This document shows positions 1-23,801 of a DNA stretch of 64,000 nucleotides, one piece after another. Under the pieces are notes generated by a model. The model was not told where the DNA came from. It was given only the letters and a program-made list of their open reading frames with translations, and searched no databases. The stretch is from Strigamia acuminata (taxonomy: Eukaryota). Every line of letters begins with the position of its first letter. Position 1 is the first letter of the stretch. The translations under genes and the position numbers were made by a program. The stretch covers positions 29,636,001-29,700,000 of the forward strand of contig OX442314.1 in NCBI GenBank assembly GCA_949358305.1, given 5' to 3'.

Positions 1-1648
1 TAGCTGACGCTGAAAATCCATCAGGCGGGGATCATCAATGGTCTTGATGTCGGAGAGTTCTAGCCTTTCAGCTAGTCTCTGCCAGTCCTTCTGCGACTCG
101 GCGATCTGGGCGCTTTGGTATGCGTCCAGCTTCTGGAGCACTTCCTGCTGCGCTCTAATGGGTTGCTGCTCGTAGCAGGTCCATTGTGGTCCGAATGACT
201 CACTAAAAAATGGCCGGAGTTGCAGGTTGCTAACTCCAGCCGGCAAGCGGGAAACATATCCATGTTCGGGCAAGCGGCTAGCATGTCCAGGTACTGGCAC
301 GCTACAGTCGGGAGAGATATCACCGACAACACGTCTCATGGCGTATGGAGTAGCCGGGTTGTCCACTTTGAACGTGGAGGCGGTTCGGCTACTTCGGGCG
401 GACTGGATTGTGGAGTCCGATTCGAAGCTCAGCGAAGACGACGAGCCAAACGTCTCTTGTGTCCGTCCTCGTCGCGACTGCGGGCGTGATGGCGGTGCTT
501 CAGTCGAGTATGGGCGCGATCGCCTCTGTCGCTCCTCTCGATCGCGGCTGGATTCTCGAAACATCGGGCGTGTTGCTTGATCCGGCGGAGGGAGTCTTCC
601 CACCCTCAAATCCTCGTCTTGCAGCGGAGGATTGATGGCCGCTGGGGCCGGGAGTTCATCTTCTCGATAGAAAGGGAGAGCGCATCGCGCTTGCTCCTCT
701 GCCTCGTGTTCTTGAGCCAGTTGTCGATTTTCGTCGACGCGAAGCTGCGCTGCGGCAGCTCGGAGTGCTTTCGACTGGAAGAATCCTGGAAAATCATTGA
801 AGCACCCGGCGAGCGCCAACTGGTGGAGCTCGGTTTGTGTGACGGGAAATTGCGGGTTCCCGTCACGAACGGACTGACGGTACCGCTTAACGACTTCTCG
901 CTGAGTCGTTTTGAGGTTCTTCCTCACTTGGTGGAGAGCACCGTAATTAATTCCGGTGCTCCTGAGCACTCTTCTGCGCTCGTGACGCTCTCGAGGCGTC
1001 ACTGGCCACTGGTTGTGCAGCAATTCGGCAGCTAGTGGTCCTGGGGGGCTCTCGTCGAGCGTCCACTCGATTTCGTCGACTCCGTTGACGTGAGGCGCTC
1101 GATGAACCGGCCTTTTGCTCCAAGACCTTGCAGGGCGGACTTCGAGAAGTCGTGGCGCAACTTCCACCACGTGTTGTTTGCCGTCTTCAGTCTTCTGATT
1201 TTTTCGGGCAACGCCGCTCGAAAAATCAGCGGGTGCTGAGTCGGCACGTGATCGGGAAGCGCGAATGGCGTTTCTCGATCCCTCTCGATCTATATTCGAA
1301 GAAAAATAAATAAATTAGTTTATTTAAAAATAAACAAATAATTTCTTATTTGAAATATTTTTTAAGCTTAGCGCTTGTGGCCGTGAGCCACTAAGGGAAG
1401 TTGGTTGCTATAGCAACTCCCTTCGCACATGCTTGAAGCACGTGACTTTCATAGCCGCCATTTTTATTTTTTAGCGGCTTGTGTTTGAAGTCAGGAAAAG
1501 TGAAATTACTCAATTTTTCTGACTGAAACACTAGGTAAAACTTATTTTACTAATTTACCCTCTCTTGTAACGATAATTGGACGTTGTTACCGGCTCCTTC
1601 CATCGGCGTTTCATCGTCCGCATGGAGGTTGACTTCGTCGTCTGCCAT
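1..1648 (-). CDS. Putative spliced accessory ORF downstream of pol (coding exons 1648-1591 and 1289-<1), >=449 aa, unknown function
   Basis: Stop-free minus frame 1287->1 (429 codons, absent from ORF track because no stop in window); acceptor ...tttttcttcgaatatAG at 1291-1290 with AACTAAT branch-like site; phase-1 donor GCCG|gtaaca at 1590 joins MADDEVNLHADDETPMEGA in frame. Confidence 0.7.
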
Positions 1649-1870
1649 TTTCCTTCTTTTTCGCGTCGAAAAAGAAATTCTTTCGGCTAGAAAGAATTAA
1701 TAAATTATATTAAATATATTTATCGAATTTTTCATTCAGAAAAATAACTTACAGTTTGCTGAATCAAGAAAAACTGTCGTGTGGTATCGGAGTCGATGCA
1801 TCCACTTCAAAACTTATCGGAAAAGTGGCTAAGTTCGTTGATTGGAGCAACGAACTTGTTTCGGTGACAC

Positions 1871-1939
1871 CGAATGACGTCACAAATTATAACGCATTGT
1901 GAACGTTGTCATTCGAGTGTGAACTACGAATGACGTCAC
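1871..1939. promoter_or_regulatory. Two CRE/ATF palindromes (TGACGTCA) in a 13-bp direct repeat CGAATGACGTCAC; candidate internal promoter for the accessory ORF
   Basis: TGACGTCA at 1875-1882 and 1931-1938, between the pol stop and a putative 5'UTR intron (1752-1687, gtaagt...tttctag). Confidence 0.4.
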
Positions 1940-1990
1940 GAGATTGCTCTCTCGGATCTTTTGGGTAAACCCAAAAGGTGAAAGTCAACG

Positions 1991-4900
1991 CTATGTCTTG
2001 ACTCGCGGAACGCGAGATCTCAAGTTGTACTTTGACTTTCGCGAAGTACAATCCAACTTGTTTAGATTGTCATCAGCATCGTCTCCAATGTCAGATGAGT
2101 TATTTTCTTCATTGTTTGAAATTTTCTCTTTTTCTAAAAACATTTCCTTTTCTAGATTTTCATCAAGAGAAACATTTTCAAGTCGCTTGTTTATTTCATC
2201 GACTTCGTTATCTTTGAGTTTCGATTTTTCACTCGATTCCGTGTTTTCGACAGGAATTTTGGATAATTCAACATCATCCAAGGTATTAACAATATTTTTT
2301 GTTTTTTGACCCACTTCCTCCCCTTCCAGCCAAATTTCTTGGTTGAAAACGGGAAAGTACGGCATTAATTCAGTGCCGTGAACAGCTGGATAAATTTTAT
2401 TATCACTCAGCCGTCGAAGTTGAAAGGCGCCTCCTTGTAACCTTTTGACAATTACATAAGGCCCATTCCTTTTCGGTGAAATTCCTGCTGCTATTCCTTT
2501 AGCGGCATTTGAGAGAATATGAGACTCTCGCCAGACTAAATCATTTTGTCTGAAGTTGTCGAATTTCTTATCTGATTTTTCAGCTTCGACACGGCGTCTC
2601 AAATCTAAGACGTGAGACATCATATGCTGATATGTCTCTGCAATTATTGCTTCTAATTTTTGAACATATAAATGCGGATTTTTTGGATCAATGACCAAAA
2701 TTCCTTCCGGAATTCTTGGATCCCAAGGAATTCTTAATTCTCGGAAAAAATTCAAGAAAGCTGGAGAATAATCTCTGCCTCTTGTTACAGTTGTTCTCAA
2801 ACTGAATGCAAATTTGCGTAGATACTCATCCCATTGGTCGTGAATATCTAAATAAATCGAAACTAAATATTTAATATCTCGATTGGTTCTCTCCACAGGA
2901 TTGCTTTGTGGATGATAAATCGATGTCGGTGTTCGCGACATGTCGAATTTTTTGCAAAATTCTTTATAGACCTGTGATCGAAATTGAGGTCCATTATCAC
3001 TTATAATTTGTCTTGGAAATCCAAAAGTTATTGATAAGTGATAAATTGTGTTGGCAACTTTCATTGCCGTTGGATTACACATTGGAAATAATTCTGGCCA
3101 ATGTGTAGCGACATCTACGATGACGCAAATGTGGGTATTGTTTCTTCTGGTTCTTGGTTTGGGACCAGACAAATCCACACTGAGGCAGTCAAATGGTCCA
3201 AATGGTCCAATTTGAGCGCCTTCAATTTCGGTCTTCGATCTCGGCTTGCATGCCTGACATCCTTGACAATGTTGAATAAAACGTGTAATATCACGTTTCA
3301 TACCTTTCCAGGTATAAACTCTTCGAGTTCTGTACATTGTCCTCGCAATGCCTGGGTGGCCGGACAGTGGATGTCCGTGCATCAACCATATGATTTTATA
3401 AATCAATTTTCTTGGCACAACAACTTTAAGTGCCCTACCATCCTCTCCTAATTCATCGGTAGAGGTAGGATGATAATGGAGTAACATATCTTCTTCAATG
3501 AGATAAGTACTCGCGTGTCTTTCAAAATTTCTTCTTTGAAGACGAGTTACTATGTAACTTGGATATTGCTTGTTTAACAAGTAATTGCGAATATGTTGGC
3601 AAAATTTGTCTGCTTTTTGCGCCGCAATAATGTCATCTCTCGTTGGAGGATCACATTCTAATTGTTTGGCAATTTTAGCTGCAAATGCTTTAATTAAAAC
3701 ATTTGTTGTTGGCAGCTCGAATTTTTTAGCCATCATAGCTCTTAATTCGACGTCAGGGGTTCCTGACGGATCATGCATTTTAATACAAAAATTAATTAAT
3801 GCTTGATCATCTTCATTAACTATTATCGACTTGGGTAATTCGTTCAATTTTCCCATTTGCCAACTTCGGCAAGGAGATGGGCAATATGATAATAAATCAT
3901 CATTATCGCCATCGTCTTCTGGTTCGTCAGGTGCACTGACAGGTGCACGAGACAATGCGTCTGCTATTACATTCAGCGGACCTTTGACGTACTGTATTTC
4001 GAACGAATACGCCATCAGCTCCATTTGCCAACGAGCTAATCTGCCCGACGGGTCAGATAACGACATCAACCATTTTAAGGCTTGGTGATCCGTTTGTACA
4101 GTGAATGTAGTGTACTCTAAATATGGGCGAAATTTGCGCAATCCCCATACTACTGCGAGACATTCTAATTCTGTCACAGTATAATTCTTTTCAGCGGGTT
4201 GCAAGCTTCTGCTTGCATACACGCATGGCATTTCGACTTCTTGGCCATCCACATTTTTCTTTTGTGTAAGGGCTGCACCCAACCCTTGTTTACTGGCGTC
4301 AGTATGAACAATAAATGGCATGTACAAGTCAGGCATCTTCATTGTTTCAGCATTCGTAAGCAGGTCTTTTATTGCGTCGAATGCTGCTTGATGATGCAGT
4401 TCCCAATCGAACTCCGCATCTTTCTTCAAGAGAGGCCTTAATGGTTCTGCAACCGTGGCCAAATTCTTGATTAGGCGGTGAAAGAAATTCACCATGCCTA
4501 GAAATCTTTGTAATTCCTTAAGATTGGTAGGAGCCGGAAATTGCGTAATTGCAGCGACTTTTTTAGGGTCTACTGCAAGTCCTTCTACTCCTACTTTGTA
4601 GCCTAGAAAAATTAATTCCTTTCTACAGAGATGCGTCTTGCCAGGATGCGCATGTAAATTAGCTTCTGCCAATTTTTTAAACACTATATCTAAATGTTTA
4701 ATGTGTTCTTCGAACGATTTGGATACAACAATTATGTCATCCAAATATGCCCATGCAAATTTTCTGTAAACGTCACCCAAAACTTTTTCCATCAATTCTT
4801 GGAAGGTAGTTGGTGCGTTTACTAATCCGAAAGGCATGACTAAAAACATTAGTCTTCCCATTGGGCTCCAGAAGGCAGTTTTTTCTCTGTCTTCAGGTCG

Positions 4901-6250
4901 CAATTCTATCTGCCAATATCCCTTAGTCAGATCTATAGTACTGACCCACTCGAATTCTCCGATTTCTCGCAGAATTTCCTCAATTGTTGGCATTTGAGGT
5001 GGGTTGTACTTAGTATGTGTATTGATGGGGCGAAAATCAATGCACAAGCGTGGGTCGTTTCCTGGTCGCATGACTAGGACTGGCCGCATTCCGTAATCGC
5101 CTTCAGCTTTGACGACTACGCCTTTGTCAATCATGTCTTGACAAAGTTGTCTAATTATTTCCCTTTTTTGAGGGTTTATGCTCTTAAAGGGGACACGGAT
5201 GGGTTTCTCCGTGTCAAGCTCAATTTTGTGCTTAACCAGGTGTGTTTTACCTGGATCTTTAGAAATAATCCTTTTATGTTTGGATAACATTTTTTCTAAT
5301 AATTTGGATTGCTCCAAATTTAAGTTAGCTTCTTCGACTAACTTTTGGATGAAATTCTCTTCATCAATTTTGCTTTGAGTTACACTCGCAGCGTAAGCTT
5401 TTGCGAAGGTCACAAATGAGGAATCGGGTTCCTCTATTTTCTCCAAATAACGTTCCAGCAACGCTTGTGGAATGTATGGCAAATCTGCATCCACAGGTTG
5501 CGTAAAATTCCAAGACATCGTCTGTGGATTAGGTTGGATTTTTAATTTATTCATAAAATCGCAACCCAATAGTACCATTGGATACTTATTTGGTATTACG
5601 ATGAACGGATGACGTAATGTGCCATGTGTCCATCGAAATGAAAGATGGATTGTTCCATCTGGAGTGACTTCTTCACTAGCCGTCGTAACTCTGACACCAG
5701 GTCCGATAGGTCGTAGGTATTTTTCTAGACCTAATTGATTAATAACTGAAGTGGCTAGGAAGCTCTTATTTGCTCCTGAGTCCAACATACCAGTTATTAC
5801 ACCTTTTAACGTTTCTAACTTTAACGTCGGAAGGTCTTGGCTGTTTGGTATTCCAGCCAGTTTGCACTCAAACTTGCGCAATTTATGATGAATTGTAATT
5901 GGAGGCTCCAAAGGCAATTCATCTAATAACTCATTGGTATCAAGAGTTGTAGCTGCAAATAACTTAATGCACTCCTCAATTCCAGTCGTTTCTGGAACCG
6001 AGCTTGGTCTATCGTCTTTAACTTCGACTTTATCTTGAATATTGGAAGTGTCTTCTTCAGTCGGAGTTTCGCCGACAATCTCCTTCTTTAACTCAAGAGA
6101 TTCTTTTTCTTTTAGTTCTGTTTGACGAATTAATTCATCAATAACTTCTCCAACATCTTCCATTATCTTCAGATTTTCATTCTCTGATTCCGATTTCGGA
6201 GAAGACGCAGTGTCCACTAGACCTGATGGATCTGCGTCTACAAGTTTTTT
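1991..6250 (-). CDS. pol: Gypsy Pol polyprotein (protease, RT, RNase H, integrase), expressed by -1 frameshift
   Basis: 1408-aa ORF 1991-6217 with LDSGA, RLCIDFR, DLTKGYWQ, MPFGL, YLDD, HTDAS, HHCC zinc finger and DDE integrase; frame open upstream to the slippery site. Confidence 0.96.
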   Translation of the reverse strand, partial: KKLVDADPSGLVDTASSPKSESENENLKIMEDVGEVIDELIRQTELKEKESLELKKEIVGETPTEEDTSNIQDKVEVKDDRPSSVPETTGIEECIKLFAATTLDTNELLDELPLEPPITIHHKLRKFECKLAGIPNSQDLPTLKLETLKGVITGMLDSGANKSFLATSVINQLGLEKYLRPIGPGVRVTTASEEVTPDGTIHLSFRWTHGTLRHPFIVIPNKYPMVLLGCDFMNKLKIQPNPQTMSWNFTQPVDADLPYIPQALLERYLEKIEEPDSSFVTFAKAYAASVTQSKIDEENFIQKLVEEANLNLEQSKLLEKMLSKHKRIISKDPGKTHLVKHKIELDTEKPIRVPFKSINPQKREIIRQLCQDMIDKGVVVKAEGDYGMRPVLVMRPGNDPRLCIDFRPINTHTKYNPPQMPTIEEILREIGEFEWVSTIDLTKGYWQIELRPEDREKTAFWSPMGRLMFLVMPFGLVNAPTTFQELMEKVLGDVYRKFAWAYLDDIIVVSKSFEEHIKHLDIVFKKLAEANLHAHPGKTHLCRKELIFLGYKVGVEGLAVDPKKVAAITQFPAPTNLKELQRFLGMVNFFHRLIKNLATVAEPLRPLLKKDAEFDWELHHQAAFDAIKDLLTNAETMKMPDLYMPFIVHTDASKQGLGAALTQKKNVDGQEVEMPCVYASRSLQPAEKNYTVTELECLAVVWGLRKFRPYLEYTTFTVQTDHQALKWLMSLSDPSGRLARWQMELMAYSFEIQYVKGPLNVIADALSRAPVSAPDEPEDDGDNDDLLSYCPSPCRSWQMGKLNELPKSIIVNEDDQALINFCIKMHDPSGTPDVELRAMMAKKFELPTTNVLIKAFAAKIAKQLECDPPTRDDIIAAQKADKFCQHIRNYLLNKQYPSYIVTRLQRRNFERHASTYLIEEDMLLHYHPTSTDELGEDGRALKVVVPRKLIYKIIWLMHGHPLSGHPGIARTMYRTRRVYTWKGMKRDITRFIQHCQGCQACKPRSKTEIEGAQIGPFGPFDCLSVDLSGPKPRTRRNNTHICVIVDVATHWPELFPMCNPTAMKVANTIYHLSITFGFPRQIISDNGPQFRSQVYKEFCKKFDMSRTPTSIYHPQSNPVERTNRDIKYLVSIYLDIHDQWDEYLRKFAFSLRTTVTRGRDYSPAFLNFFRELRIPWDPRIPEGILVIDPKNPHLYVQKLEAIIAETYQHMMSHVLDLRRRVEAEKSDKKFDNFRQNDLVWRESHILSNAAKGIAAGISPKRNGPYVIVKRLQGGAFQLRRLSDNKIYPAVHGTELMPYFPVFNQEIWLEGEEVGQKTKNIVNTLDDVELSKIPVENTESSEKSKLKDNEVDEINKRLENVSLDENLEKEMFLEKEKISNNEENNSSDIGDDADDNLNKLDCTSRKSKYNLRSRVPRVKT
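6203..6250 (-). promoter_or_regulatory. -1 ribosomal frameshift signal: A_AAA_AAC plus downstream stem-loop
   Basis: Minus strand CGA AAA AAC TTG TAG (gag) vs AAA AAA CTT GTA GAC (pol); stem AGACGCAG-A-TCCA...TGGA-CA-CTGCGTCT starts 4 nt after the heptamer. Confidence 0.85.
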
Positions 6251-9200
6251 CGAAACATGTCAGTTATGATCTTGACTGCTTTTTCAAACTCAGCTGTTGA
6301 CACTGGTTTGTCCTTTTTAGAGGATGGGCAGTCTTTTTGCCAATGCCCTAATTTTTTGCATAAATTGCATGGATCAGTGGCAGGCGATTTCTTTTTCGTT
6401 GCTGCTAGCGAGGCAGAACGAGAACGAGCGTCAGACCGGCGCTCTGGCGACACCGCGGGTGATTTTGAATTCCTTTCGGTATTCACCTTTGATGCGTCAA
6501 ATGAAACATTTTTTGGTTTCATTCTTGGCTTCCATTTGCCTGCAACGGGGTTATTTTTTGCTAACAACGCCGCTGCTTTGGCTAATAAAGCCAACGTCTC
6601 GTCTCCCGCTTCCTCCTCCTCTTCAGCTTCTTCAGCGTCAGACGGCGGAGTTTCAGCTCCAGTTATATTTGCATGTAACTTAGGGACTGAATGAGGATTT
6701 TTGACGTCCTTTTTGGAAGATTCTTTTTTCGAACTCTTCCCTTCCACTTCGTCTAGAAAGTCTTCGTAACTAGGTGGCTGCAACAATTTCAAACCATTCA
6801 AGGTTTCATTGTTTTGCTCAGCGAGTCTCTTCTCTCGCTTTAAGTACGCTGACCTTTCGGCATCTGTAAGGTAGGCTTTGTACTTTTCGTCAATGCGTAA
6901 TTGATTGACCTCCATGAACTCGTTTAACTCGGAGAATTTCCCCGGGTCGGGAGCGTCCGACATCATCAGAATATTTTTACTATATTCTGTGAGACCAGCT
7001 CTGAACTGATCATCTGCTGTTGCGTCAGTAACGGCATGTGGCATTCTGCCAAGCAGATTCTCTGCTCTTAGCATGTACGAATGTAAGCTTTCGCCTTTTC
7101 GTTGCTTAAGACATCTCCAGAGCGTCTTGATGTCTTCGCTCGATTCACCAAATTTGAACATAAATTGTTTAACGAAGTCATCCCACTTCGTGAAGTCTTT
7201 CCTGCGAAACCACTCCTTGACATCGCCAACCAGTATTCTTGGTACTAGATGGGCCAATGCACCTTCACAGCCAAAACTGTGAACCTTGCCTAGTTCGAAT
7301 ATTTCCAGCAAGAGGTTTGACCCTGCTTGCCAATTTCCATTATAGGCATGTGGGATAACTCGATCCCATCTAATGAACTTTTCATCTGTTGTTTGATGAG
7401 TCCATTTATCAGAAGTGAATTCATTTATTTTTTGCAAAATAATTTTATCCCTTCTGTTTTTTCGCTGTTGTTGAGCATTTTGCCTCAACAACTGGTCAAT
7501 CTCATCTTTCGTGTAGAAATCGGGTCTTTGAGTTCTACTACGTGTTCTGTGACGAGATCGCCCTCTCACACTGGGACGTGAGGAATCTGTATCTGACGCA
7601 GATTCATGATTCGGATTTGGCGGCGGATCAGGGTCCGGAGGATCGTCGCCATCTGGCGGACGACGGTCTCCATTTGGTGGTCCCCTTCCACCTCGATTGC
7701 CATTCGAATTGTGGTCACGTGAGTGGCCACCTCCATGTCCATCTGAACTATCTCCACCTGGTGGGTCACCACCTGGTGGATTTCCACGGTATCTCGGCCC
7801 ATCACGGATGTCGTTGTGACAATCTCGCTTTGGTGAGCCTTCTCGCGGATTATCGTGTGACCGTCCACGATCGTGTGGTTTCTCACGTTCTTTATTTTTT
7901 CTCTCTAGCAATCCGATTAATCGGTCACTATTGCTAAAGAATCGATCCGAATTTTGCGGAACTTTTGGGAAATGATATTCGGTCGGGTCTGGTTGTCGCT
8001 TTCGCTTTTTGCGACTGTGATGACTATTACGGCTTCCACGACTACTGCGTGAGTCATCACTGTCAGTCCAACTTGATTGTCGACTGACTTTTGGTTTAGC
8101 TGATGTTAAATCAATCAACTCAGGTGATTTGGAAGCACCTTTTTGCAAAACTGGGGCTGGCTTTGCAAAATTATTTTTGCCGCAAACGTCTTGTACTTTT
8201 TGTACGACTACTGCAAAGTTCTCTTGTACCGTCAATAGATCTGCGCGAAGAATTTCGTTTTCACGAGCTTGCGCAGCTAAGTCGGCACGCAATAACTGCT
8301 CTGCAATACTTTGACTTTTGGCGGCTTGACCAGCATCAATTACTGACTGCTGTCGAGCGAGAAATACTTCATTTTCTCGTTGCGCTAATCTCTTAGCTCT
8401 TGCTGCTTGTTCTGCAGCATAATTCTCGTTATTTCGAGAAGTGGAGGGAATTACTTCCCTCGCTCGAACTGGGGCGGTTAGTTCGGCAGTCATTAAATTT
8501 GTGTTGGCTTCTCGCAAATTTGCGTTGGCCAATCTCAAATTTTCATTAGCAATTTCTAAATCTTTTTGGGCTTGATTTAGTTGCTCGAGCCTTTGTTGTT
8601 GCTCTTCGTCAGTAATTAGCCAGGAAGCTTTTTCCTGCTCTAATTGTAACAACTTAACATGATCATTCGCACGTTGTTGTTTTAGTTCGGCATTTTGCTG
8701 CTGCATTTCTGCATGCATTCGCTCGAACTCTGCTTGCAAGCTTGTTCTGACGATTTCAACGTCTTTTTGGCTTTGTTTGCGGACCATAGCTTTGTGGATT
8801 TGTTCCACAGTCATTTCGCTAGTGACTTTTACTCCCTCGAGCCTAGCTTGCTCACGGAGTGCGTCCATCATGGTTACACGCACGGGAGAATGAGAAACTT
8901 CCATATTGGAGTTCTCAGAATCTTGATGCGCTGCACCTTGGACTGGTGATGAATTCAGCGAGTGCTCCGCACTTGATGATTGAATTCGTAAATTCAAATC
9001 ATCGTTTTGCGTCTTGGAATGGCCACTTCCAGTTGGATTGTTTAAGTCCAACTGGCCGCTTGGCGGGGATGGCTGTTGTCGCTCCAACGCTTGCGTGAAT
9101 TCATTCACGATTAACTGTGCCGAGTTACAGTTAGCTGTTTGATCCATGGTTTCAAACAGTTCTTGTGACTCAGTCACTTCTTGATCCACGGCTGGTAGAT

Positions 9201-9261
9201 CGATCGCCACTCGTCTCTTCGCCGGCCTTCCTCTCGGTCTCTTCTCTGAAGGAGTCGCCAT
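6238..9261 (-). CDS. gag: Gypsy Gag, 1007 aa (coiled-coil N-half, capsid-like region, CCHC knuckle)
   Basis: CNLCKKLGHWQKDC; retrotransposon gag-like segment W-FVKQF-KFG...LKQRKGESL-SY; lies between PBS and pol. Confidence 0.93.
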   Translation of the reverse strand: MATPSEKRPRGRPAKRRVAIDLPAVDQEVTESQELFETMDQTANCNSAQLIVNEFTQALERQQPSPPSGQLDLNNPTGSGHSKTQNDDLNLRIQSSSAEHSLNSSPVQGAAHQDSENSNMEVSHSPVRVTMMDALREQARLEGVKVTSEMTVEQIHKAMVRKQSQKDVEIVRTSLQAEFERMHAEMQQQNAELKQQRANDHVKLLQLEQEKASWLITDEEQQQRLEQLNQAQKDLEIANENLRLANANLREANTNLMTAELTAPVRAREVIPSTSRNNENYAAEQAARAKRLAQRENEVFLARQQSVIDAGQAAKSQSIAEQLLRADLAAQARENEILRADLLTVQENFAVVVQKVQDVCGKNNFAKPAPVLQKGASKSPELIDLTSAKPKVSRQSSWTDSDDSRSSRGSRNSHHSRKKRKRQPDPTEYHFPKVPQNSDRFFSNSDRLIGLLERKNKEREKPHDRGRSHDNPREGSPKRDCHNDIRDGPRYRGNPPGGDPPGGDSSDGHGGGHSRDHNSNGNRGGRGPPNGDRRPPDGDDPPDPDPPPNPNHESASDTDSSRPSVRGRSRHRTRSRTQRPDFYTKDEIDQLLRQNAQQQRKNRRDKIILQKINEFTSDKWTHQTTDEKFIRWDRVIPHAYNGNWQAGSNLLLEIFELGKVHSFGCEGALAHLVPRILVGDVKEWFRRKDFTKWDDFVKQFMFKFGESSEDIKTLWRCLKQRKGESLHSYMLRAENLLGRMPHAVTDATADDQFRAGLTEYSKNILMMSDAPDPGKFSELNEFMEVNQLRIDEKYKAYLTDAERSAYLKREKRLAEQNNETLNGLKLLQPPSYEDFLDEVEGKSSKKESSKKDVKNPHSVPKLHANITGAETPPSDAEEAEEEEEAGDETLALLAKAAALLAKNNPVAGKWKPRMKPKNVSFDASKVNTERNSKSPAVSPERRSDARSRSASLAATKKKSPATDPCNLCKKLGHWQKDCPSSKKDKPVSTAEFEKAVKIITDMFRKNL

Positions 9262-9352
9262 TTTTCAATGAGGATAAAGAAAGGATAGAGAAGAAAGATA
9301 AGCAAGATAAAAATGGCGGGTAAATTTTAACTAACAAAGTTATACAATGACT

Positions 9353-9370
9353 ATCCCGGACGGGCCCCCA
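9353..9370 (-). promoter_or_regulatory. Primer-binding site, tRNA-Pro type
   Basis: Minus strand TGGGGGCCCGTCCGGGAT, one mismatch from the MLV-type tRNA-Pro PBS TGGGGGCTCGTCCGGGAT, 2 nt after the LTR end. Confidence 0.9.
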
Positions 9371-9372
9371 CG

Positions 9373-10332
9373 TGCTGCGATCCGGGTTTTTATCCACTTA
9401 ATTTCTAATAAATTAAGCAGAAACCGCAGGTGAATGCTATAAAAGACTTACAATCGGCGGCCTTAAATTATCTAGGGGTTAAGTTTAAGGAAAAGAAATA
9501 AAAAGACAGTTTTATCAATAAAAATCACAAATATGTATTTATTCGTTTAAATTACAATGACTAGTTAAAAATATCACGAATGCGACAAGTCGCGAAATGA
9601 AATGAGCGGGAACAATGGAAGGGCTTGCAACGACTGTTGCAAGCTACAAAGCGTCAGAAATGGCGCTTAAACAACACACAGTTGTTAGGCGAAGGCAAAT
9701 TGTCTTCGTTCTGCAAACTCACGAACGATGGTCGAAGACGATGGTTCTCGTGGGTTTCTTCTATGGCTCGTGCGACGGCTCGGCGGCGGTGGTTGACGGC
9801 TGTAGGCGTCTGGTCCAGGTACGATGGCGATGGTTGCCGTTCGCGCGGCAACGATGGCGATGGTTCACTTGGATCAGGAAACTTCTTCTCGTTACGTTTG
9901 CTGGAATTAGCTACGGCTAATTCAAGCAGGATAGCTGGCTTTGTAATTCGTTACAAAGCAAGCTGGTGAAACTTGACGGTTACACGGTCCACTGTCAATA
10001 CGTATTGTCGGAGCAGATATCGCAGTGATGTTGTGGGTTGTGTATTTTTGTCAAGAGTCCCGATTTGAGCCAAGGCGCGAGCCCAGCACGCTTCAATATT
10101 GCGCAGAAAACCTGCGCACTTAGCTCAAATGGGTGCAACTAGTGGTTATTACACCATATTGCACCATAACGGCTAATAACCGTCTTCACCCCGGACAACC
10201 TGGGGTGATATGTGCCTAGAGAGGATTTCTCCCCTCGGTCACATGATCTGACTTGGCGTGTGCCACAGTCAAATTAATTAGAAGACAATTAATTTTATCT
10301 TCTAAGTTGGTGAATATTTTGAGATCACCACA
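9373..10332 (-). repeat. 5' LTR (~960 bp) of the left Gypsy element
   Basis: Minus strand TGTGGTGATCTCAAA...GGATCGCAGCA, adjacent to PBS; outer end inferred from terminal similarity to LTR 62014-63498. Confidence 0.75.
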
Positions 10333-10537
10333 ATGTGGTAGTTAATTTGAAGTTTTAGTTGAGGGATAAAACATGTATTGATTATTTCAAATTGATTTTC
10401 CACAAAACAAGTTGCTAATCATCATTTTCTGCACGACATCCGCCGCTCTTCATTTTTTATTTATGCTGAATAACACGAAAGTGTAAACTCGATAACTACT
10501 TACTTTAATTTTCTTCAACAGCGTCAGTTGTGCAATC

Positions 10538-12456
10538 ATGCTGCAACGCAAACGGGCTCGTCCTAGTTATCCCGTCAAAGTATTCGTATACAGGTGCAGA
10601 AGTGTTAAAAAAGTTAGACGCGTCATATCCGAAGAAGATCAAATTAAATTTTTGGGATTAAACAAATTGAATGATCGATCGTACAGCGCAGTTTCCAAAT
10701 TTATTTGGTTTATAATTGTCGTGGCTTGCTTCGGCGGCTGTTGCTTCCAAATTTCCACACGCGTGATCATCTACCTTGAAGGATCAATTACACTCGAAGT
10801 GAAATTAACACCGCAAACGTTTTTTACACCACCTTCAGTCACGTTATGCGGCACAAATATGTTGTTTATGATGCTAAAATTGAGAAAAAATAGGTCAGAC
10901 GAGCATATTGTAAACAATCAAATCGATACGGTCAAATTATGGAATACAGTGGGTCAAGTGCATCCGAAAGACTTAGTTTCCTTATTCATTGTAAGTTTAC
11001 GTAAAATTAACCAAATATTGCACTAGTTACTTAAATCAAGTTTGCGCCCGCCAATTTGATAACGGGCACAAATTGTTCAAGCAAAGAGATAGAATTTTGA
11101 TTTTTGATTGAAGTACGTTTGTTCTTCACTAGTGCAAAGACGGATCCAGCGATGACTGTAGAAAACCAGTTGCACAATCAATGATAACTGAGACCTTTAA
11201 TACAATATTTGGACGTTGTACTATGCTGACTATGAGTAAGTTATCTGTAAAATATAAACACCTTATTGAGCCAGGGTTTGGAGTATGCAGTAGTCATCAG
11301 TGGTGGACCGGCCAAGGCATTAGTCTGTGGGCCCCTTAATCATTAAACAATATGTAATAATGTAACTTCCAACATTGTAATAGTGGTGGGCCCCCTTTGT
11401 CTCTTGACAACCAATATTTTTAGACCCAGTCCACTATTGATAGTCAGTGGCGCATCATGGCACTCACTGATCATGTGGTTCAAAAATTTTGCTTACATAA
11501 TTGTAGAGGAGAAAATGCTATTTAGAGGTCCAGTTACATTTGTAGATCTCTTCTGGAACAGTGTCAACTCAACCTATCCCCCACCAGAAGAAAATACAAT
11601 AGTAGTAGGTTTTTATAACGAAAATAAGGACAATTGTATTATAATTTTGGGGTGGGGAATTTTTAGTTTTCTCTCTACAAGGATACGTTCAAGCATGTAC
11701 ATGATGGCATAATTGTTGCCGATTATGCTGATGTCAATTATTATACAAGATTTCGGATATCTGCAAAAGAGGTAAAGTATTTCTTGCATTCAAAGTTTCT
11801 GCTTTTGCTATTTTCAAAAACAATAATAAAAAAATGTAAAAACCGAAATCAGAACATGCCTTGTTTTAGATTCATTTACGGATTCATTTGTATTTACTTT
11901 AGTACAATAATTTGGATATGCCTCACAATCCCTGTGCTCCAGAGGAGGAAGTCGTTTCTTGTCTGAACACATGCATTGACAAAACAATGTTGCAGAATAT
12001 GACCTGTGGGTAAGATGACCAAGTCGTTTTTAAAAAACGTTTTTTTCGTTCTATAAATCTTGTGTTTTTGTCAGATTGCCATTTATCAATTCTACATTGC
12101 CGCAGTGCACTGGCGTTAGCGAAACTGTAGATAATTACGTGTTTGCGTTAGAATTTACTTCGACAATGGCACGCCAATGTCAGTCTTGCAGATGCAAACG
12201 CAAATGCAACGAAGTAAAATACACACTGCACAAAGATATTCAGAGAATAAATAAAGAGAGTAACGATACACATTTGAGGTTGTTCTATGCAGACGAGACA
12301 CATGAAACGTTAACAGAGCGGGAATTGTTCACGCTTTCATCATTATTCAGTGATATTGGAGGAACCATGGGTGTATATCTTGGCATTAGCATATTCACAA
12401 TTCTTGATCTTACTAGCACTCTAATCCGAAAATTACTTCAATTTGTTTCTAAATGA
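10538..12456 (+). CDS. DEG/ENaC (pickpocket/ASIC-like) channel, paralog 1, ~415 aa; exons 10538-10990, 11133-11235, 11507-11604, 11667-11771, 11903-12009, 12075-12456
   Basis: TM1, PSVTLC, TIFGRC, Cys-rich thumb, TM2 LFSDIGGTMGVYLGISIFT with GxS filter; GT-AG introns give a continuous frame. Confidence 0.92.
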
Positions 12457-12540
12457 TTTGTAGCTTCAATTTAGATTTAAATATAAATAAAGATTAAAAC
12501 TTGTTTGGCATTTCTTTCCTTTTTTTAAACTTCTACAAGT

Positions 12541-13537
12541 TGTGGTGACCCCACTAGGATGGCTCAGCTTGGAGCAGCTGCACCGTGACCCACTTTCTTC
12601 TTGTGGGAGAGTGGAGGCCGCTTCCCCCTTTCTCAGTGCATTGACATTTTGTCAATGGGCAAGTGTCTGCCCCTAGGAAGCGGGGAGGACTCTACTCGAC
12701 GACATGCATTGGGTGACATCGGTCACCTGATGGCCCTCTTTTGTGCCAAGGAATTTGCCTCAGCACCAAGAGGGCAGAACAAATACAGAAAACGAACAAA
12801 CAACACGTAAAACCCAACGTCCTAAACCGTCAGGCCTTCGCAACCAAAGCAAGGAGTGACTTAACACATTGTACAATTTATACGTGATTAACGTTATTTC
12901 TGCACAACCTTCGCAGTTGCTAAACTGCGATATCAAACTTAGCCACGACACTTAGGCAACATTTCTCACTAACCGTGGGAAACAGCCAAATTAGCGTTGT
13001 ATTCAGTAGTTAGCGAGTCGTGAGGATATTGCCTCACAAGCCTAACTACTAAGACGCTCTTCGCCGAGGTTTGAATCGCCGGAGAGGCAAAATCCGCCTT
13101 TGTGTGCATCGCCGGATAAATGAAGTAAGTCTCTGTGTGGGCTTTCGTAGAACAAACGGAACCCTATACAACAGCCAAGGATTTCAGTCTCTCGTTGAGA
13201 GCATTCCACTCGCGCGATAGCATGAGCCCACGAGGACCAAGAAGGAAGACAAAGACGACTGCAGGACGACAACGGACCAACACACTCGAGGTAAACTCGC
13301 GTGCGAATTCGACCGCCATTTTGGATCGCCTTTGAAATCACATTCATTAATAGTATTGCATTCTTTATCGGGTGAAATAAACATCCCTTATATTTTATAC
13401 ACTTGTGTAATTCTTTGGGTAACCGCTCTAACAAAGCGGTAATTAAAAAGGTAAGTGAATCTCAACCATGTAAAGTAACTTCGGAGACGGTAGAGCGCGA
13501 CAAACTTCAATTCCTTCAACCCAACACATTCATCACA
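12541..13537 (+). repeat. Possible solo LTR (~1 kb)
   Basis: TGTGGTGA...TCATCACA termini, higher GC than flanks, AATAAA near 13376; no target-site duplication found. Confidence 0.35.
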
Positions 13538-13568
13538 ATGGTTAGTATTTAAAATGTCATGAATATAC

Positions 13569-13823
13569 TGTGGAGTTTTTCGGGCGTAACTGGCGATAAC
13601 GATCGCCAGGGGGCGGGCGGACACAAACGGAATATGTCCGAGAAACGTTTTGGGGGTGAACAGCCAATTGGGGGCCGTTCTTTGTAATCAACCAATCAGG
13701 GTTGACCAGTGTGATATATAATCAGTTTGTTTTGTTTAATAAAATCACTTGAAGTTAACTAGAGCTTGTAGTTGTGTCTTGGTAATTTCGGGTCAGCTAG
13801 TCTCAGCTTTGAGATAGTTTACA
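13569..13823 (+). repeat. 5' LTR
   Basis: TG...CA direct repeat of 18794-19048; TATATATA and AATAAA inside. Confidence 0.96.
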
Positions 13824-14016
13824 TCAGAAGTGGGGTAGAAGGATTCGATGCGACGATAAGTTAGACGAATAAAGTAGAAGACGATTGTTTTTGGCGACTG
13901 AAGCAGAATTCGAAATTCGGGTTAGCAAATAACGCGTGAACAATTCGGGAAACGAGAGAGTCGATTCGCCGAAACAAACACGTGTTACGAAGGTTAGCCG
14001 AATTACGAGAAAAGAG

Positions 14017-17000
14017 ATGGCCGGAGCAAAAGCAGTCGTAGCGAAAATCAGACGCGGAGCATTCCCAACGGAGGCCGAGTGGGACAAACTGAGAGCCAAA
14101 GACGTCCAGCCAATGTTGATAGAACGGAATATCGTGCCGCCGAGATTAAAACGAGATATGATCACCACGTTGCGACTAGCCGTGCTTACAGAGCTAGGAC
14201 TCGCGGACGAAGACGTGAATCAAGAAGAGGTAGAGGAAGACGACAAAGAAGAAGAAGAGAAAGACGAAGAGAAAGCAGAAGACAACAATCCGAAGATAGA
14301 AGAAAACGCGCCGATACAAGCGATGATAAACGGCAGATTTAGTGCGGATCAAGTGCAAAAGCTAATGCAAACGCAAATGAAGCAAATGATGGAGGCGATG
14401 CTAGCGATGCAGACGAAACCAGAGGCGCCGAAAGAGAAGAAAGAAGTTAAGAACGCGCCAAAGTTACCACGATTTTCGGGCACTCGAAGCGAGCTGCGTA
14501 CGACCACGCAATGGTTACAAGACGTCCGTGAATACGCGAAGGAATACCAATGGACGAACGTAACTACGGTGACGACGGCGGCAGCAGCGTTAGAAGGACC
14601 AGCGAAGGTGTGGCAAGACAGCGCGGGAACGACGATCCGGAACTTCGACGTATGGGCGGTTGAGCTAACAAAGAATTTTTCAGATCGACAGTTGTCGTAC
14701 GAAGACAAAGAAAGATTGATTCGAGCGCTGCAGAAAAACGACGAGACCACCGAAACCTATTTGCGACAAAAGTGGGCCACGTGCGAACGGTTGGGAATGT
14801 CGATCAACGACGCGCAGAATTACCTGTTAGACGGATTGAAGAGCAAGTCGGCAACGGCGCCGATGTACGTCGTCAAATACCAACACATTAGCGATATGGT
14901 TGGAACGGCGCAAGACTTGGAAGCGCGAGCAAAGGGGACAACGATCGAAGCTAAAACGAGGCCAAGCGTGGCGAAGCCGAACGGAAGGGGATTCGACGCA
15001 GGACCGAAGTGTTACAAGTGTGGCGAGAAGGGACATCAAAAGGCGGATAGTCCAAACGAGATGAAGTGTTTTAAGTGCCACGAGTCGGGACATTTGGCAA
15101 ACGCGTGTCCAAACGGAGTGAAATGTTTCAGTTGCAACGGTTTCGGGCATATGGCAAACACGTGTCCAGAGCCGAAGAAAGAGCGGAAGCAGCCACCGAA
15201 GGACAAGTTGGACGTTAAGACGAAGAAGATTTACAAAATCGAAGCCGAGGAGATGCAGCCAGAATTCGAGACCATGATGTGGGTCGATGGAAAGAAATGC
15301 AGCGCGGGAATCGATACGCAAAGCGCCGTGTGTCTAATTAGTAAGACGTTTTCGCAACGTACGAAGATCGAAGAGCCGGACTACGAATACGTGATCGAAG
15401 GGTTCAATCAGGACGCAAGTCGCTACCGCGGACGAACGAGGTGTGATGTAGAAAGCGCAAACGTGAAATTAACGGGTGTCGAGTTCTACGTGGTCGACGA
15501 CGCCAAAATGCCGACGGAAGTCTGGATAGGGAAACCATTCCTGAAACACCCGACGATCACGATGCAATCAGACGGAGGATACGTAACGTTCAGACCGAGG
15601 GAAGGGATGCAAGACGAATCAGGAATTTCAAGAATCCAGCCAAAAATCACTGCAGCAAAGCCGCGAGCGCTCGTGATCGACGAAAACAAAGTGGTACCAG
15701 CCCACTCGATAAGTTTGGTGACGGTGCGAGCGAAGAGTCAGTCAGACGGGTTGTTTTACGTAGAAAACGAGCACGCGGTGACAGATCGATTGGAAGTACC
15801 GGAAGGCCTGATCGAAGTGAAGAACGAGCGAGCAACGATGCCGATAATCAACAACGGGCCAGAAGAAGTCCGAATCACACGAGGACGGAAGCTTGGACAC
15901 GTCGAAATCACTGAAGAAGAGCCATCGTTACGCCAAGTACAAATCAAGAAAGTCGCAACGATCGAGGCAGGTCCGAAAACGCGAATAACGGCCGACGAGA
16001 TTAACTTGGGCAAGTCGGTGACGCCAGAAGAGAAGGAGATCGTATTGACGATGATCAACGACGAATTTCGGGACTGTTTCGCGACGAGTTTGGAGGAGGT
16101 CGGATGTTTTCCAGACCTCAAAATGGATATCGAGCTAACAACAACGAGACCAACGAATTTGCGGCGATACCAGTATTCAGCAGCGCAGCAAAAAGAGATC
16201 GACAAGATGGTCGCCGAATTGGAAGGAGCAGGATTCGTGACGCGATCAAAGAGTCCATTCAACAGTCCGATCGTGATGGTGCGCAAGAAAACCGGCGAAT
16301 GGAGAATTTGTATCGATTTCAGGTCGCTCAACGAAATAACGGTGAAGGAACACTTTCCGTGTCCCAGGATGGATGAGTTACTCGACGGGACGCACGAATG
16401 GCGAGTCTTCCTAGTGTTCGATTTGGCGTCGGGTTACTACCAGAACGAATTGACGGCCGGAGCGCAAGAGAAAACAGCATTTTCGACAATGAACGGCAAA
16501 TATCAGTTTGTGCGGATGCCGTTTGGGTGGATAAACGCGCCGTTTGTTTTCAATCGAGTAATGGAGTTGGCGTTCGGACATTTGCCATACGAAGTACTGC
16601 GCAGATATATGGACGATCTTCTATCGGGTGCGAAAACGAACGCAGAGTTAATCGAAAAGATGCGAAAGATCTTAATCGAGGTGAGAAGATCGAAGCTCAC
16701 ATTGAAGTTGAGCAAGTGCCACTTCCTCTGCGAAGAAGTACAGTTTCTCGGGCTACGACTGACGAAGGACGGCCTACAACCAGGATTCGAGAAAACAAGC
16801 GCGATCAAGAATTTTGCGAAGCCGAAAGACGTACGAGGCGTAAGGAGTTTCTTGGGGTTGTGTGGGTATTTCCGACGATTTATTGCGGGATATGCGACAA
16901 AAACAAGAGCACTAACGAAATTGACTCGAAAGAACGAAACGTTTGTGTGGACGACCGAGTGTGAAGCGGCGTTTCAGGGGTTGATTGGAGAATTGATTGC

Positions 17001-18780: not shown

Positions 18781-18793
18781 TCGGATGACCGAG

Positions 18794-19048
18794 TGTGGAG
18801 TTTTTCGGGCGTAACTGGCGATAACGATCGCCAGGGGGCGGGCGGACACAAACGGAATATGTCCGAGAAACGTTTTGGGGGTGAACAGCCAATTGGGGGC
18901 CGTTCTTTGTAATCAACCAATCAGGGTTGACCAGTGTGATATATAATCAGTTTGTTTTGTTTAATAAAATCACTTGAAGTTAACTAGAGCTTGTAGTTGT
19001 GTTTTGGTAATTTCGGGTCAGCTAGTCTCAGCTTTGAGATAGTTTACA
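18794..19048 (+). repeat. 3' LTR
   Basis: Direct repeat of 13569-13823 followed by TSD ATAC. Confidence 0.96.
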
Positions 19049-19490
19049 ATACTATCAGACAAGTGGTAATTTTCGTGTTGAGTTTTTTCTTTAGTGAAGG
19101 CGATTACTGAGAATTTAATGGTAAAGTTCTATAAAGTGGTGTCATAAAACGAAAAGTTGTTGTCTAATAAAACAGTGCTGTATTCTCTTGGATGTCTCAT
19201 TACTGATCATAATGCATAAGTGACACCGGTAATATTAAATTGATTTCCCACAAACTGAATCTCAATTACAATTTTATTAAACATATTTTGCTGCAACGAT
19301 TTCCGATTGCTCTACATTTCGGAACTCGTCTTCCATTTTACGACTTTGTCTTCTTTTAATACGGCACTAAAAGCATAACGACAACTACTAAAAACATTAA
19401 CTATCATTCTATATTGCGTATCTTTTGTTGTGGGATAGTCTTTGGCTTCATCTCCCGGCAAAACTCAGTCACGAGACGTTACATCTTATT

Positions 19491-21120: not shown

Positions 21121-21625
21121 AATTTTCTATTTTTGAAAAAATTACGATGGCCCTTCTGGGCCACCATAGTATAATGTGTCAATAAATAATCACAGCACGC
21201 ACTTATGATGGGTGATGTTATAAATTGAGTTGTGTTGAATAATACTTGTATTATACTAATAAAATAATTCATGTGTGCAAATATAGGGATGATTGATCTA
21301 AAAATCCTTAAAATAATTTCACACGGGCATTAAAAATTTAATGGTTAATTAAGTGATGTCGGTGTTGTCTAATAAAATATTGTGTATTGCCATGGTTGTC
21401 AAATTACTGACTACAACGTAAAAAGTAATCGTTTTAAATTGATTTTCCTCATACAGAGTGTCGACTACAAGTTGTTTAATCACATTTTGCTGGCCAACTT
21501 CCTCTTGTAAATTGTCTTTTAGGAATTTTACGACTTCGTCTTGGTTAATGCGGCACTTAACGGTAATCAATATACACCGCATTAAATATTAACCAACTTT
21601 GAATATCGTGTAGATATCTTTAGAT

Positions 21626-23244: not shown

Positions 23245-23801
23245 TTTGCAATGCAGCGAAGTTTCAGGGGTTGCTTTTGAGCGCGAGTGTTAAAACAACA
23301 GATAAAGCTCACACACCGGCAGTAAACAATGAGATTCGCTATCAAACTAAAATTTACTGTATAATTATTAATGAATAATCACAACACTTATTTATGATGT
23401 TATAAATTGCGTCGTATTGAATAATATGTGTATTATACCAGATTACTCACGTTGATTGATCCACAAATTCTCAAAATAATTTCACACTGGCATTAAAAAT
23501 TTAATGGTCAATTAATAAGGGCGGCCGGTGTTGTCTAATAAAATATTAGTGTTGCCATGGTTGTCAAATTACTGACTTCAACGTAGACGTAATCGTTTTA
23601 AATTGATTTTCCACACACAGGGTCGACTGTAGTACGTTTTTTAATCACATTTTGCTGGCCAACTTCCGCTTGCTCTTAAACTTCCACCTTATTTCTTTTT
23701 TATATGAATTTTATGACTTTGTCTTGTTTAGACAGTACAAACGGTAATCGATGCCTTAGTAAACACTCGCCAAACTTAGATATCCTGTTATATCTTTAGT
23801 C

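Follow-up and report, generated by a model that had tools for sequence, protein, structure and literature searches.

A probable intron-containing, non-envelope ORF3 downstream of pol in a high-copy Ty3/Gypsy element of Strigamia acuminata

The window analysed here, a stretch of 64,000 nucleotides, holds a Ty3/Gypsy element on its minus strand (1991-10332) and, directly after pol, on the same strand and with no LTR between them, a further reading frame, here called ORF3, which runs off the window, its 3' LTR and PPT being expected to the left of base 1. Read from the sequence, the 5' LTR of the element occupies 9373-10332 (960 nt, TG...CA), and two bases past its end lies a PBS-like stretch of 18 nt (9353-9370), which we take to be the complement of the 3' end of tRNA-Pro; tRNA genes were not found in 1-11000. 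A second copy of this LTR is absent from the whole 64-kb window, in which the first 24 nt of the LTR match a single site with up to three mismatches allowed. A gag-like ORF of 1007 aa follows at 6238-9261; its sole Pfam match is a zf-CCHC knuckle at 964-980 (E=8.7e-4, 19.7 bits, gathering cut-off 20.8), and Pfam found no capsid family in it. The pol ORF (1991-6217) encodes an aspartic protease (142-223), RVT_1 (389-542, E=3.6e-29), RT_RNaseH (633-737, E=1.4e-36), Integrase_H2C2 (934-993, E=9.7e-18) and rve (1023-1103, E=7.2e-9), and this order of protease, RT, RNase H and integrase is that of Ty3/Gypsy elements. Compared with outside proteins, the best relatives of pol share 31-46% identity, and rotifer proteins (32-36%) are among the few full-length matches. 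Since the best identity is 46%, the organism's own copies are missing from that protein collection, and blank protein searches with ORF3 are therefore uninformative on its copy number.

Several elements of the gene structure given in the preliminary description are present as it had stated. A minus-strand frame of 429 codons is free of stops from 1287 to the window edge at base 1, with the nearest upstream in-frame stop at 1317-1315 and the first in-frame ATG only at about residue 241; an acceptor, ...TTTTTCTTCGAATATAG, ends at 1290; and a 66-nt GT..AG intron lies at 1752-1687. For comparison with other copies we used contigs from three public runs (X1, X2 and X3; recorded kind '?' for X1 and X2 and 'DNA?' for X3), one of which is possibly the sample behind the window's assembly. 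These contigs are short, about 60-270 nt, so that linkage means overlapping chains together with depth, and depth is not a copy number. Contigs that skip exactly 1687-1752, with a joint from 1686 to 1753 and plus-strand ends CT..AC, occur once in X1 (depth 501) and once in X3 (depth 402), that is, in two runs from two studies; among the contigs listed, none lacks the second intron.

The first coding exon had been drawn from an ATG at 1648 to 1591, and here the two ends fared differently. The ATG (1648-1646) is present, with A at -3 and G at +4, and the donor at 1590 (CCG/GTAACA, phase 1) is real but weak. At 1558, 32 nt further on, lies the near-consensus donor AGG/GTAAAT in phase 0, which is the closest to consensus of the five stop-free GTs from the ATG through 1558. 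An exon end at 1591 in phase 1 suits only the window's own shifted frame and is probably wrong. The gene would then comprise a putative leader exon reaching to 1753 within the spacer after pol (1753-1990, bridged by high-depth contigs), intron 1 (1687-1752), an exon at 1559-1686 with the ATG at 1648 and 30 codons to the donor at 1558 (phase 0, GC3 0.60), an intron 2 of 269 nt (1290-1558), placed by its splice sites and phase, and an exon that runs from 1289 past the window. The first part of this last visible exon, 65 codons at 1093-1289 with codon starts at 1289, 1286 and so on, begins right at the acceptor; the remaining 364 codons (1-1092) are open to the window edge and show the synonymous excess described below. 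ATG 1801, from which the frame stays open through the joint left by intron 1, was rejected as the coding start: its context is weak, and both of the two differences listed there are non-synonymous.

On this model the two parts of the last exon are separated by a frameshift in the window copy. Contigs of all three runs indicate a one-base difference in length between the window and most other copies at about 1092: the length difference is carried by all of the depth in X2 (9127.8/9127.8, two contigs) and X3 (3454.6/3454.6, three contigs) and by half of it in X1 (17451.9/34558.3, two contigs), and it is the sole length difference within 1-1289 among the differences listed (40 of 82). Because most copies differ in this way, the first 65 codons of the 429-codon frame were probably misread in the preliminary description. 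A second frame, with codons from 1289, is open over 1289-1093 and in phase 0 at the acceptor, and the GC content of 1093-1289 by codon position is 0.57/0.46/0.68 in this frame and 0.68/0.59/0.46 in the frame first proposed. GC3 is thus 0.68 in the 1289 frame, close to that of exon 1 (0.60) and the main ORF (0.59), as against 0.46 in the original frame over the same bases. A model with 1648-1559 joined to 1289 onward therefore appears to suit the other copies better.

On this revised model the window copy would itself be broken. Its 1289 frame, continued past 1092, meets a stop about 21 codons on, and since the copy is out of register there, its product would be truncated at about 117 aa, except where splicing takes the weak donor at 1590. 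In X1, half of the depth has the window's state at 1092, so this form has itself multiplied, and it might use donor 1590. We therefore weighed whether the original model, with donor 1590, phase 1 and a continuous frame from 1289, works exactly as proposed in a subfamily of its own. That donor does make the window frame continuous, and the X1 copies share the window's state; however, the donor is weak with a far better one 32 nt on, all of the X2 and X3 depth has the other state, codon-position GC over 1093-1289 fits the other frame, and chance would keep a GC-rich frame open for about 74 codons in some 7% of cases, as estimated from base composition. We regard that model as rather improbable.

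ORF3 is a real coding sequence. The preliminary description had proposed comparing it across copies; it is present in them, and their differences are mostly synonymous. In a sample of the variation (40 of 82 differences listed), 13 of the 22 differences falling in 1-1091 are synonymous in the long frame, against 6.1 expected when the same kinds of change are placed at random (P=0.002), and the control frames gave 1/22 and 7/22; third codon positions hold 14 of the 22 listed differences (binomial P=0.0035). Purifying selection has thus left a clear mark on ORF3 in the comparison of copies. The same data bear on the suggestion that 1-1990 is a single-copy host gene beside a 3'-truncated Gypsy element, or a frame that has stayed open by chance in DNA rich in GC. 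Such an origin would accommodate a 3' LTR that lies outside the window, and GC-rich sequence does leave several frames open, but the synonymous excess is limited to one frame, and in each of the three runs contigs with depths in the thousands occupy all 30 bins of 1-2600 (1654 contigs in X1, 738 in X2 and 372 in X3). A run designated X6 gave no contigs on 1-2600. Nor does a conserved host gene agree with the phmmer search of ORF3 against 1.84 billion representative proteins, which returned no homologue at E<=0.001. Contradicted by contig depth, by linkage to pol and by the synonymous excess, both versions are hardly credible.

Linkage to pol can be followed along overlapping contigs. In X3 the contig chain is unbroken from the pol stop into the ORF3 leader, with depths of 4130 (2002-2250), 4444 (1963-2031, no differences), 2232 (1932-1992), 2377 (1890-1951), 1417 (1823-1882), 2537 (1753-1852) and 2187 (1710-1781), and for pieces of ORF3 itself (74-189, 221-396 and 1213-1438) the depth is 2041-2621. 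These observations support the conclusion that ORF3 is repeated at about the depth of pol and joined to the end of pol in other copies. The main depth in X3, about 4100-4400 over pol, drops to about 2000-2600 past position 1962 or so, and pol-bearing copies need not all carry exactly this downstream sequence. No LTR-like continuation was found among 12 of the 13 loose contig ends in 1700-2250; five are diverged versions of the same sequence and others are too short to judge, while the loose end at 2138 continues into unrelated sequence. In agreement with the preliminary description, the sequence between pol and ORF3 contains neither an LTR nor a PPT. Purine runs of at least 10 bases in 1-1990 are limited to 1662-1648; this run was rejected as a PPT, since it reaches the ATG with no LTR-like sequence after it and is interrupted in other copies, with loose ends at 1649 and 1654.

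The codon usage of ORF3 sets it apart from the rest of the element. Its GC3 of 0.59-0.68, unlike the 0.34 of pol and 0.39 of gag, suggests that it came from elsewhere, as would be expected of a captured gene and also of a chimera of two elements. In the latter case, 1-1990 would be the 5' part of another retroelement (promoter, leader and first ORF) joined after pol, either as a composite that then multiplied or because the two elements are often nested. Besides codon usage, such a junction could explain why ORF3 begins with a promoter-like stretch and leader of its own and why the depth in X3 falls by about half beyond 1962 or so, and it would agree with a window that shows no 3' LTR; moreover, non-LTR elements usually have a first ORF that is orphan and arginine-rich. 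Against it, the junction is bridged at pol depth (4444 at 1963-2031, compared with 4130 at 2002-2250), no strongly supported alternative continuation follows pol, and ORF3 resembles neither the element's own gag (best BLASTP E=2.5) nor any other gag, ORF1 or protein family. A composite that multiplied as a single unit would amount to an ORF3 carried by the element. We consider a chimera unlikely.

The readable part of the product is hydrophilic and without a signal peptide, as first described, and it has no membrane segment either: over about 460 residues the highest 19-residue Kyte-Doolittle mean is 0.68. Its N-terminus is acidic, K+R and D+E are equal at 64, the read-through product has arginine clusters at residues 132 and 284 (RHERRRVLR and RQRRSR), and there is one loose NES-like pattern. 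Homologues were sought widely. Pfam matched neither the 429-aa frame, env families included, nor the 65-aa alternative frame (1093-1289); a protein homologue search covering lengths of 235-751 aa found none at E<=0.001; the ESM Atlas gave no usable match and PDB sequences none at E<=1; and of 139 pattern matches in metagenome contigs, none was confirmed. A single-sequence AlphaFold2 model of 1-1092 has a mean pLDDT of 50.6 and a pTM of 0.27, with helices and a disordered region at 211-313, a long Arg/Ser/Pro-rich stretch being predicted as disordered; its quality is too low to support a comparison of folds.

As far as it can be read, then, the product is not an envelope protein, and the C-terminal part beyond the window could hold a membrane anchor. 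An envelope-type ORF3 would have to show here an unusual ectodomain or cytoplasmic N-terminal part, its anchor and fusion part lying off the window. ORF3 does occupy the place of env, with pol before it and the 3' LTR expected after it; genes so placed have mostly been taken for env (PMC5408684), and the C-terminus does lie beyond the window; yet the acidic N-terminus without a signal peptide, the lack of any hydrophobic stretch, the long disordered Arg/Ser/Pro-rich region and the absence of an env family match in Pfam make this very unlikely. We favour, with a probability of roughly 0.6, the reading that 1-1990 contains about 460 codons from the start of a coding gene with introns, most likely ORF3 of the high-copy Ty3/Gypsy element at 1991-10332. 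The earlier proposal of a non-env accessory gene carried by the element is thus supported in part, in that the gene is repeated, joined to pol and free of membrane features as far as it can be read; its model of exon 1 probably does not hold.

In the spacer and leader (1753-1990) there is a 9-bp hairpin, and a TATAAT-like box and two TGACGTCA palindromes fall within 1870-1940; these are motif sightings, from which a promoter role of 1753-1990 is suggested. ORF3 might be expressed from an internal promoter in this stretch, as is env in some Tor elements and as the separate transcription unit of the preliminary description would imply, or alternatively by further splicing of the LTR transcript. 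Within intron 2 there is a GC-rich island of four predicted hairpins (1370-1480; MFE -42.5 kcal/mol, z -4.12), and a search of 1-2400 against Rfam gave only three matches, far under gathering scores. The copies without intron 1 may be a trace of spliced genomic RNA that was copied back into DNA.

What the protein does can be approached through composition and analogy. It would be a soluble, arginine-rich, non-envelope protein, predicted to be nuclear and to act on the element's own RNA. Because of its position, the predicted splicing of its message, its arginine clusters and its want of membrane features, we tentatively suggest a regulator of the element's RNA, comparable to CERV of Cer1 or to retroviral Rev, and on present evidence this is possible rather than probable. 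A bolder and quite doubtful joint reading is that this invertebrate Gypsy element evolved a circuit like Rev/RRE on its own. An internal CRE/TATA promoter would drive a message that, spliced twice, encodes the orphan, arginine-rich ORF3 protein; this protein would bind the four-hairpin island as a candidate response element, which, lying inside intron 2, would be present in unspliced RNA only, and would take intron-containing genomic RNA out of the nucleus. Copies without intron 1 would then be fossils of occasional failure of the circuit.

Non-env ORF3s of Ty3/Gypsy elements are already known (PMC10309623, PMC5408684). CERV of the Ty3/Gypsy element Cer1 in Caenorhabditis elegans appears closest to ORF3 in working, and we adopted it as our working model. 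According to PMC10309623, CERV is translated from a spliced mRNA, has homologues in a narrow lineage only, lacks membrane features and carries basic motifs, and its product, a nuclear protein, is needed for unspliced genomic RNA to be exported. ORF3 is predicted to be spliced, with GT-AG introns in fitting phases and contigs without intron 1 in two runs. The likeness has limits: the phmmer search with ORF3 returned no protein at E<=0.001, and the first exons of CERV lie in gag, in the same frame (PMC10309623), whereas all visible exons of ORF3 are downstream of pol. That source also describes Rev/RRE of complex retroviruses, in which a spliced message yields a small, arginine-rich protein through which intron-containing genomic RNA is exported. 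Any resemblance of ORF3 to Rev would be one of function, there being no homology, with the hairpin island of intron 2 as the candidate response element.

Other elements resemble this one in part. In Tor3b and Tor4b of Oikopleura dioica, env is expressed independently of the LTR from an internal promoter, with a start in pol or in the post-pol spacer (PMC4402516), and the ORF3 leader exon with its TATA-like and TGACGTCA motifs would fit such an internal start. The Tor ORF3, however, is a membrane glycoprotein whose internal start was mapped by 5'RACE (PMC4402516), whereas the start here is a putative one suggested by motifs. The Gypsy-like elements Juno, Vesta and TelKA of bdelloid rotifers carry varied, often non-env, captured ORF3s, and the families named in PMC5408684 are a GDSL esterase, a DEDDy exonuclease, a paramyxovirus-F-like env and TM/coiled-coil proteins, whereas ORF3 matched no family in the Pfam and phmmer searches; in that paper the word 'intron' has no occurrence. 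Retand and other LTR retrotransposons of plants also carry additional ORFs (PMC7264820, PMC11963269); these belong to plant lineages and have no sequence relation to ORF3.

For most LTR retrotransposons gag and pol suffice, and further genes at the place of env, though common, are almost all unexplained, CERV of Cer1 being among the few with a tested role. The locus also holds a lesson for annotation, since the frameshift in the single copy of the window probably led to a mistaken exon boundary. ORF3 belongs to a very high-copy family and has two predicted spliceosomal introns inside a retroelement, an arrangement in which the element must shield its introns from splicing in its genomic RNA, and natural copies that miss one of the introns exist. 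It may thus offer a usable second case for the roles of non-env ORF3 proteins and for the balance between splicing and the export of unspliced RNA.

A Ty3/Gypsy LTR retrotransposon lies on the minus strand at the start of the window. Two bases past its LTR (10332-9373, 960 nt, TG...CA) is an 18-nt stretch resembling a primer-binding site, presumably for tRNA-Pro, followed by a gag-like ORF (9261-6238, 1007 aa) and by pol (6217-1991, 1408 aa), which carries protease, RT, RNase H and integrase matches in Pfam and closes with an acidic tail before its TAG stop at 1993-1991. The gag-like ORF is unusually long, with a helical-looking, Gln/Glu/Leu-rich N-terminal third and a low-complexity middle rich in Gly, Pro, Asp and Arg; its sole Pfam match is a sub-threshold CCHC knuckle. 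Among the 120 matches listed, pol is just 31-46% identical to its best outside relatives; few of them match over the full length, rotifer proteins included. The preliminary description placed no LTR or PPT between pol and the intron-containing minus-strand gene 3' of it (ORF3; 1-1990, running off the window edge), and this holds: no second LTR copy was found anywhere else in the window by a repeat search, a 24-mer search (up to 3 mismatches; one match, the LTR itself) or sensitive blastn (three chance matches of 22-23 nt and nothing more), and the sole purine run of at least 10 bases within 1-1990 (1662-1648), which leads into an ATG, was rejected as a PPT. Elsewhere the window holds four further retroelements with long open frames (13933-18780 and 34798-38760, plus strand; 49393-54108 and 54256-58485, minus strand): a second Gypsy element, whose gag and pol are fused (1615 aa); a DIRS-like element encoding RT, a tyrosine recombinase and a Dam-like methyltransferase domain; one BEL/Pao; and one Copia. 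Genes of the ASC/ENaC type (amiloride-sensitive sodium channels) lie at 10496-27916 on the plus strand as a tandem array of five or more copies, seen as repeating pairs of exon-sized ORFs, two of which match Pfam ASC (E=7e-15 and 1e-10). CpG observed/expected is 1.16 in ORF3, 1.58 in leader and introns, 0.96 in pol and 1.13 in the whole window; about 1 or above throughout, it gives no sign of methylation-driven depletion in 1-10332 or the whole window.

That other copies of the element carry the ORF was borne out by Logan contigs of three public runs, X1, X2 and X3 (recorded type '?', '?' and 'DNA?'; the assembly itself may derive from one of them), compared with 1-2600. Short contigs matched in large numbers (1654, 738 and 372, respectively) and covered all 30 bins in every run, with summed depths ranging from thousands up to hundreds of thousands; in X6, a fourth run, no contig matched 1-2600. 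Thus, ORF, leader and pol each occur in many copies, with depths of the same order. In X3, contigs within 1700-2250 overlap as a chain from pol into the leader (2002-2250, depth 4130; 1963-2031, depth 4444, without differences; 1932-1992, depth 2232; 1890-1951, depth 2377; 1823-1882, depth 1417; 1753-1852, depth 2537; 1710-1781, depth 2187), and depths are 2041-2621 for the ORF pieces at 74-189, 221-396 and 1213-1438. There are 13 loose ends in 1700-2250, and the 12 listed include no LTR-like continuation after pol; those at 1859, 1894, 1975, 2000 and 2132 carry the same sequence in recognisably diverged form, and that at 2138 is a single contig leading into unrelated sequence. Together, the chain and the loose ends indicate that the junction of pol with the ORF3 region belongs to the whole family and not to this locus. 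X3 depth drops from about 4100-4400 to about 2000-2600, perhaps through variant paths or because some copies lack this region, contig depth being only a rough guide.

The earlier observation proved largely real, and its interpretation right in outline, with one exon boundary probably wrong. The minus-strand frame stays open through 429 codons (1287 to base 1), the acceptor ends at 1290, and ATG 1648 stands in good context. An upstream ATG at 1801 (1801-1649, minus strand), in weak context, would be in frame with ATG 1648 once intron 1 is spliced out, lengthening the product by about 51 residues; both copy differences listed there are, by our reading, non-synonymous. The proposed donor, the phase-1 GT at 1590, is present and happens to suit the window's own frame, which is probably shifted at 1092. 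Three length differences between copies occur in 1-2600, and the sole one inside the ORF, in contigs of X1-X3, is a one-base difference from the window at 1092, found in all X2 depth (2 contigs), all X3 depth (3 contigs) and half of X1 depth (2 contigs). Upstream of it, 65 codons of a second frame (codon starts 1289, 1286...) are free of stops, and this frame begins in phase 0 precisely at the acceptor; a loose end at 1093 reads as if this frame continued into the long frame in other copies. Exon 1 is open for 30 codons from ATG 1648 to AGG|GTAAAT at 1558, the best of the candidate donors, also in phase 0. GC by codon position is 0.66/0.48/0.59 in the main ORF, 0.57/0.46/0.68 in the 1289 frame and 0.67/0.30/0.60 in exon 1; in the originally proposed frame it is 0.68/0.59/0.46 over 1093-1289. 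Because of the length difference, the phase-0 donor and codon-position GC, the better predicted model is exon 1686-1559, intron 1558-1290 (269 nt) and exon 1289 onward, on which the window copy would be frameshifted at about 1092 and its product would end about 21 codons later. Since half of X1 depth has the window's state at 1092, that form also multiplied; even so, we consider it improbable that donor 1590 with the window's own frame is the functional form.

Between-copy differences support the long frame. Of 82 differences 40 were listed, 22 of them within 1-1091, where 14 of the 22 fall at third codon positions of the original frame (binomial P=0.0035), 13 are synonymous and none creates a stop. 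The same kinds of change placed at random gave a mean of 6.1 synonymous (P=0.002), and the control frames gave 1 and 7 of 22. The ORF has therefore been selected in other copies too: purifying selection acted on the long frame as the family multiplied.

The 66-nt GT-AG intron described at 1752-1687 (intron 1) is present, and two contigs from separate studies, an X1 contig of depth 501 and an X3 contig of depth 402, skip exactly 1687-1752, with GT..AG ends on the minus strand and no letters in common at the joint; each side of the joint is 29 nt, as expected for a bubble in a 31-mer graph, although caution is in order below 30. Introns and spacers are evenly covered, which suggests that the runs are DNA. 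If so, some copies lack intron 1, and these would be products of reverse transcription of spliced genomic RNA; if a run is RNA, the skipping contig is a spliced transcript. In either case, intron 1 would be used, on RNA of the minus strand. No contig without intron 2 (1558-1290) was among those listed for 1-2600, which is not evidence either way. Within this AT-rich intron, a GC-rich island (1370-1480, minus strand) is predicted to fold into a row of four hairpins (MFE -42.5 kcal/mol, z -4.12; none of 200 shuffled sequences was as stable) and has no above-threshold Rfam match; possibly it acts in cis, as an RNA element that only unspliced RNA would contain.

The visible product, read through the pieces with X at the frame break, has about 460 residues, with 11% Arg and 7-9% each of Leu, Ala, Pro, Glu, Gln and Ser, an acidic N-terminus, two arginine clusters and balanced charge (K+R = D+E = 64). 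Its highest 19-residue hydropathy mean is 0.68 and thus it contains no membrane segment. A single-sequence structure model of 364 residues was poor (mean pLDDT 50.6); it shows helices near both ends (first 140 and last 55 residues) and disorder over 211-313. No relative emerged from any of the homology searches, placing the predicted product outside every protein family that could be tested. GC3 is 0.59-0.68 in ORF3 vs 0.34 in pol and 0.39 in gag, so ORF3 was probably captured from elsewhere and did not co-evolve with gag and pol.

By its predicted features, ORF3 occupies the env position, yet its visible part is not env-like. Its expression might start from a candidate internal promoter in 1753-1990, where a TATAAT-like box and two TGACGTCA palindromes are found, or, alternatively, involve further splicing of the LTR transcript. 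Within 1870-1975 (minus strand), directly after the pol stop, comes a perfect 9-bp hairpin (CTTTTGGGT / ACCCAAAAG), followed by the palindromes, about 57 nt apart with the box between them; one X2 contig lacks 83 nt (1847-1929). The palindrome is kept in one diverged copy. Similarly, some Gypsy-like Tor elements of Oikopleura dioica are reported to express env from an internal promoter (PMC4402516); the promoter of ORF3 is a candidate by motifs. ORF3 would need splicing, its introns sit within the genomic RNA, and that RNA would have to remain unspliced for packaging. The one well-studied parallel is CERV, an ORF of the Caenorhabditis elegans Ty3/Gypsy element Cer1: this lineage-specific protein is made from a spliced message, is nuclear and is needed for unspliced genomic RNA to be exported, and the authors of that study note that many LTR elements carry unexplained 3' ORFs in the same position (PMC10309623). 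ORF3, likewise predicted to be spliced and without relatives, may have a CERV/Rev-like role on the element's RNA, which by this analogy is its most likely single function, at a probability of about one in four. Among animal Gypsy-like elements, non-env ORF3s are described in bdelloid rotifers (PMC5408684) and in Cer1, and orphan additional ORFs are reported to be common in plants (PMC7264820, PMC11963269). The kind is thus already known, and ORF3 is probably a new case, unrelated to the known ones; a pair of internal introns, selection traceable over a very large family and copies apparently lacking an intron set it apart.
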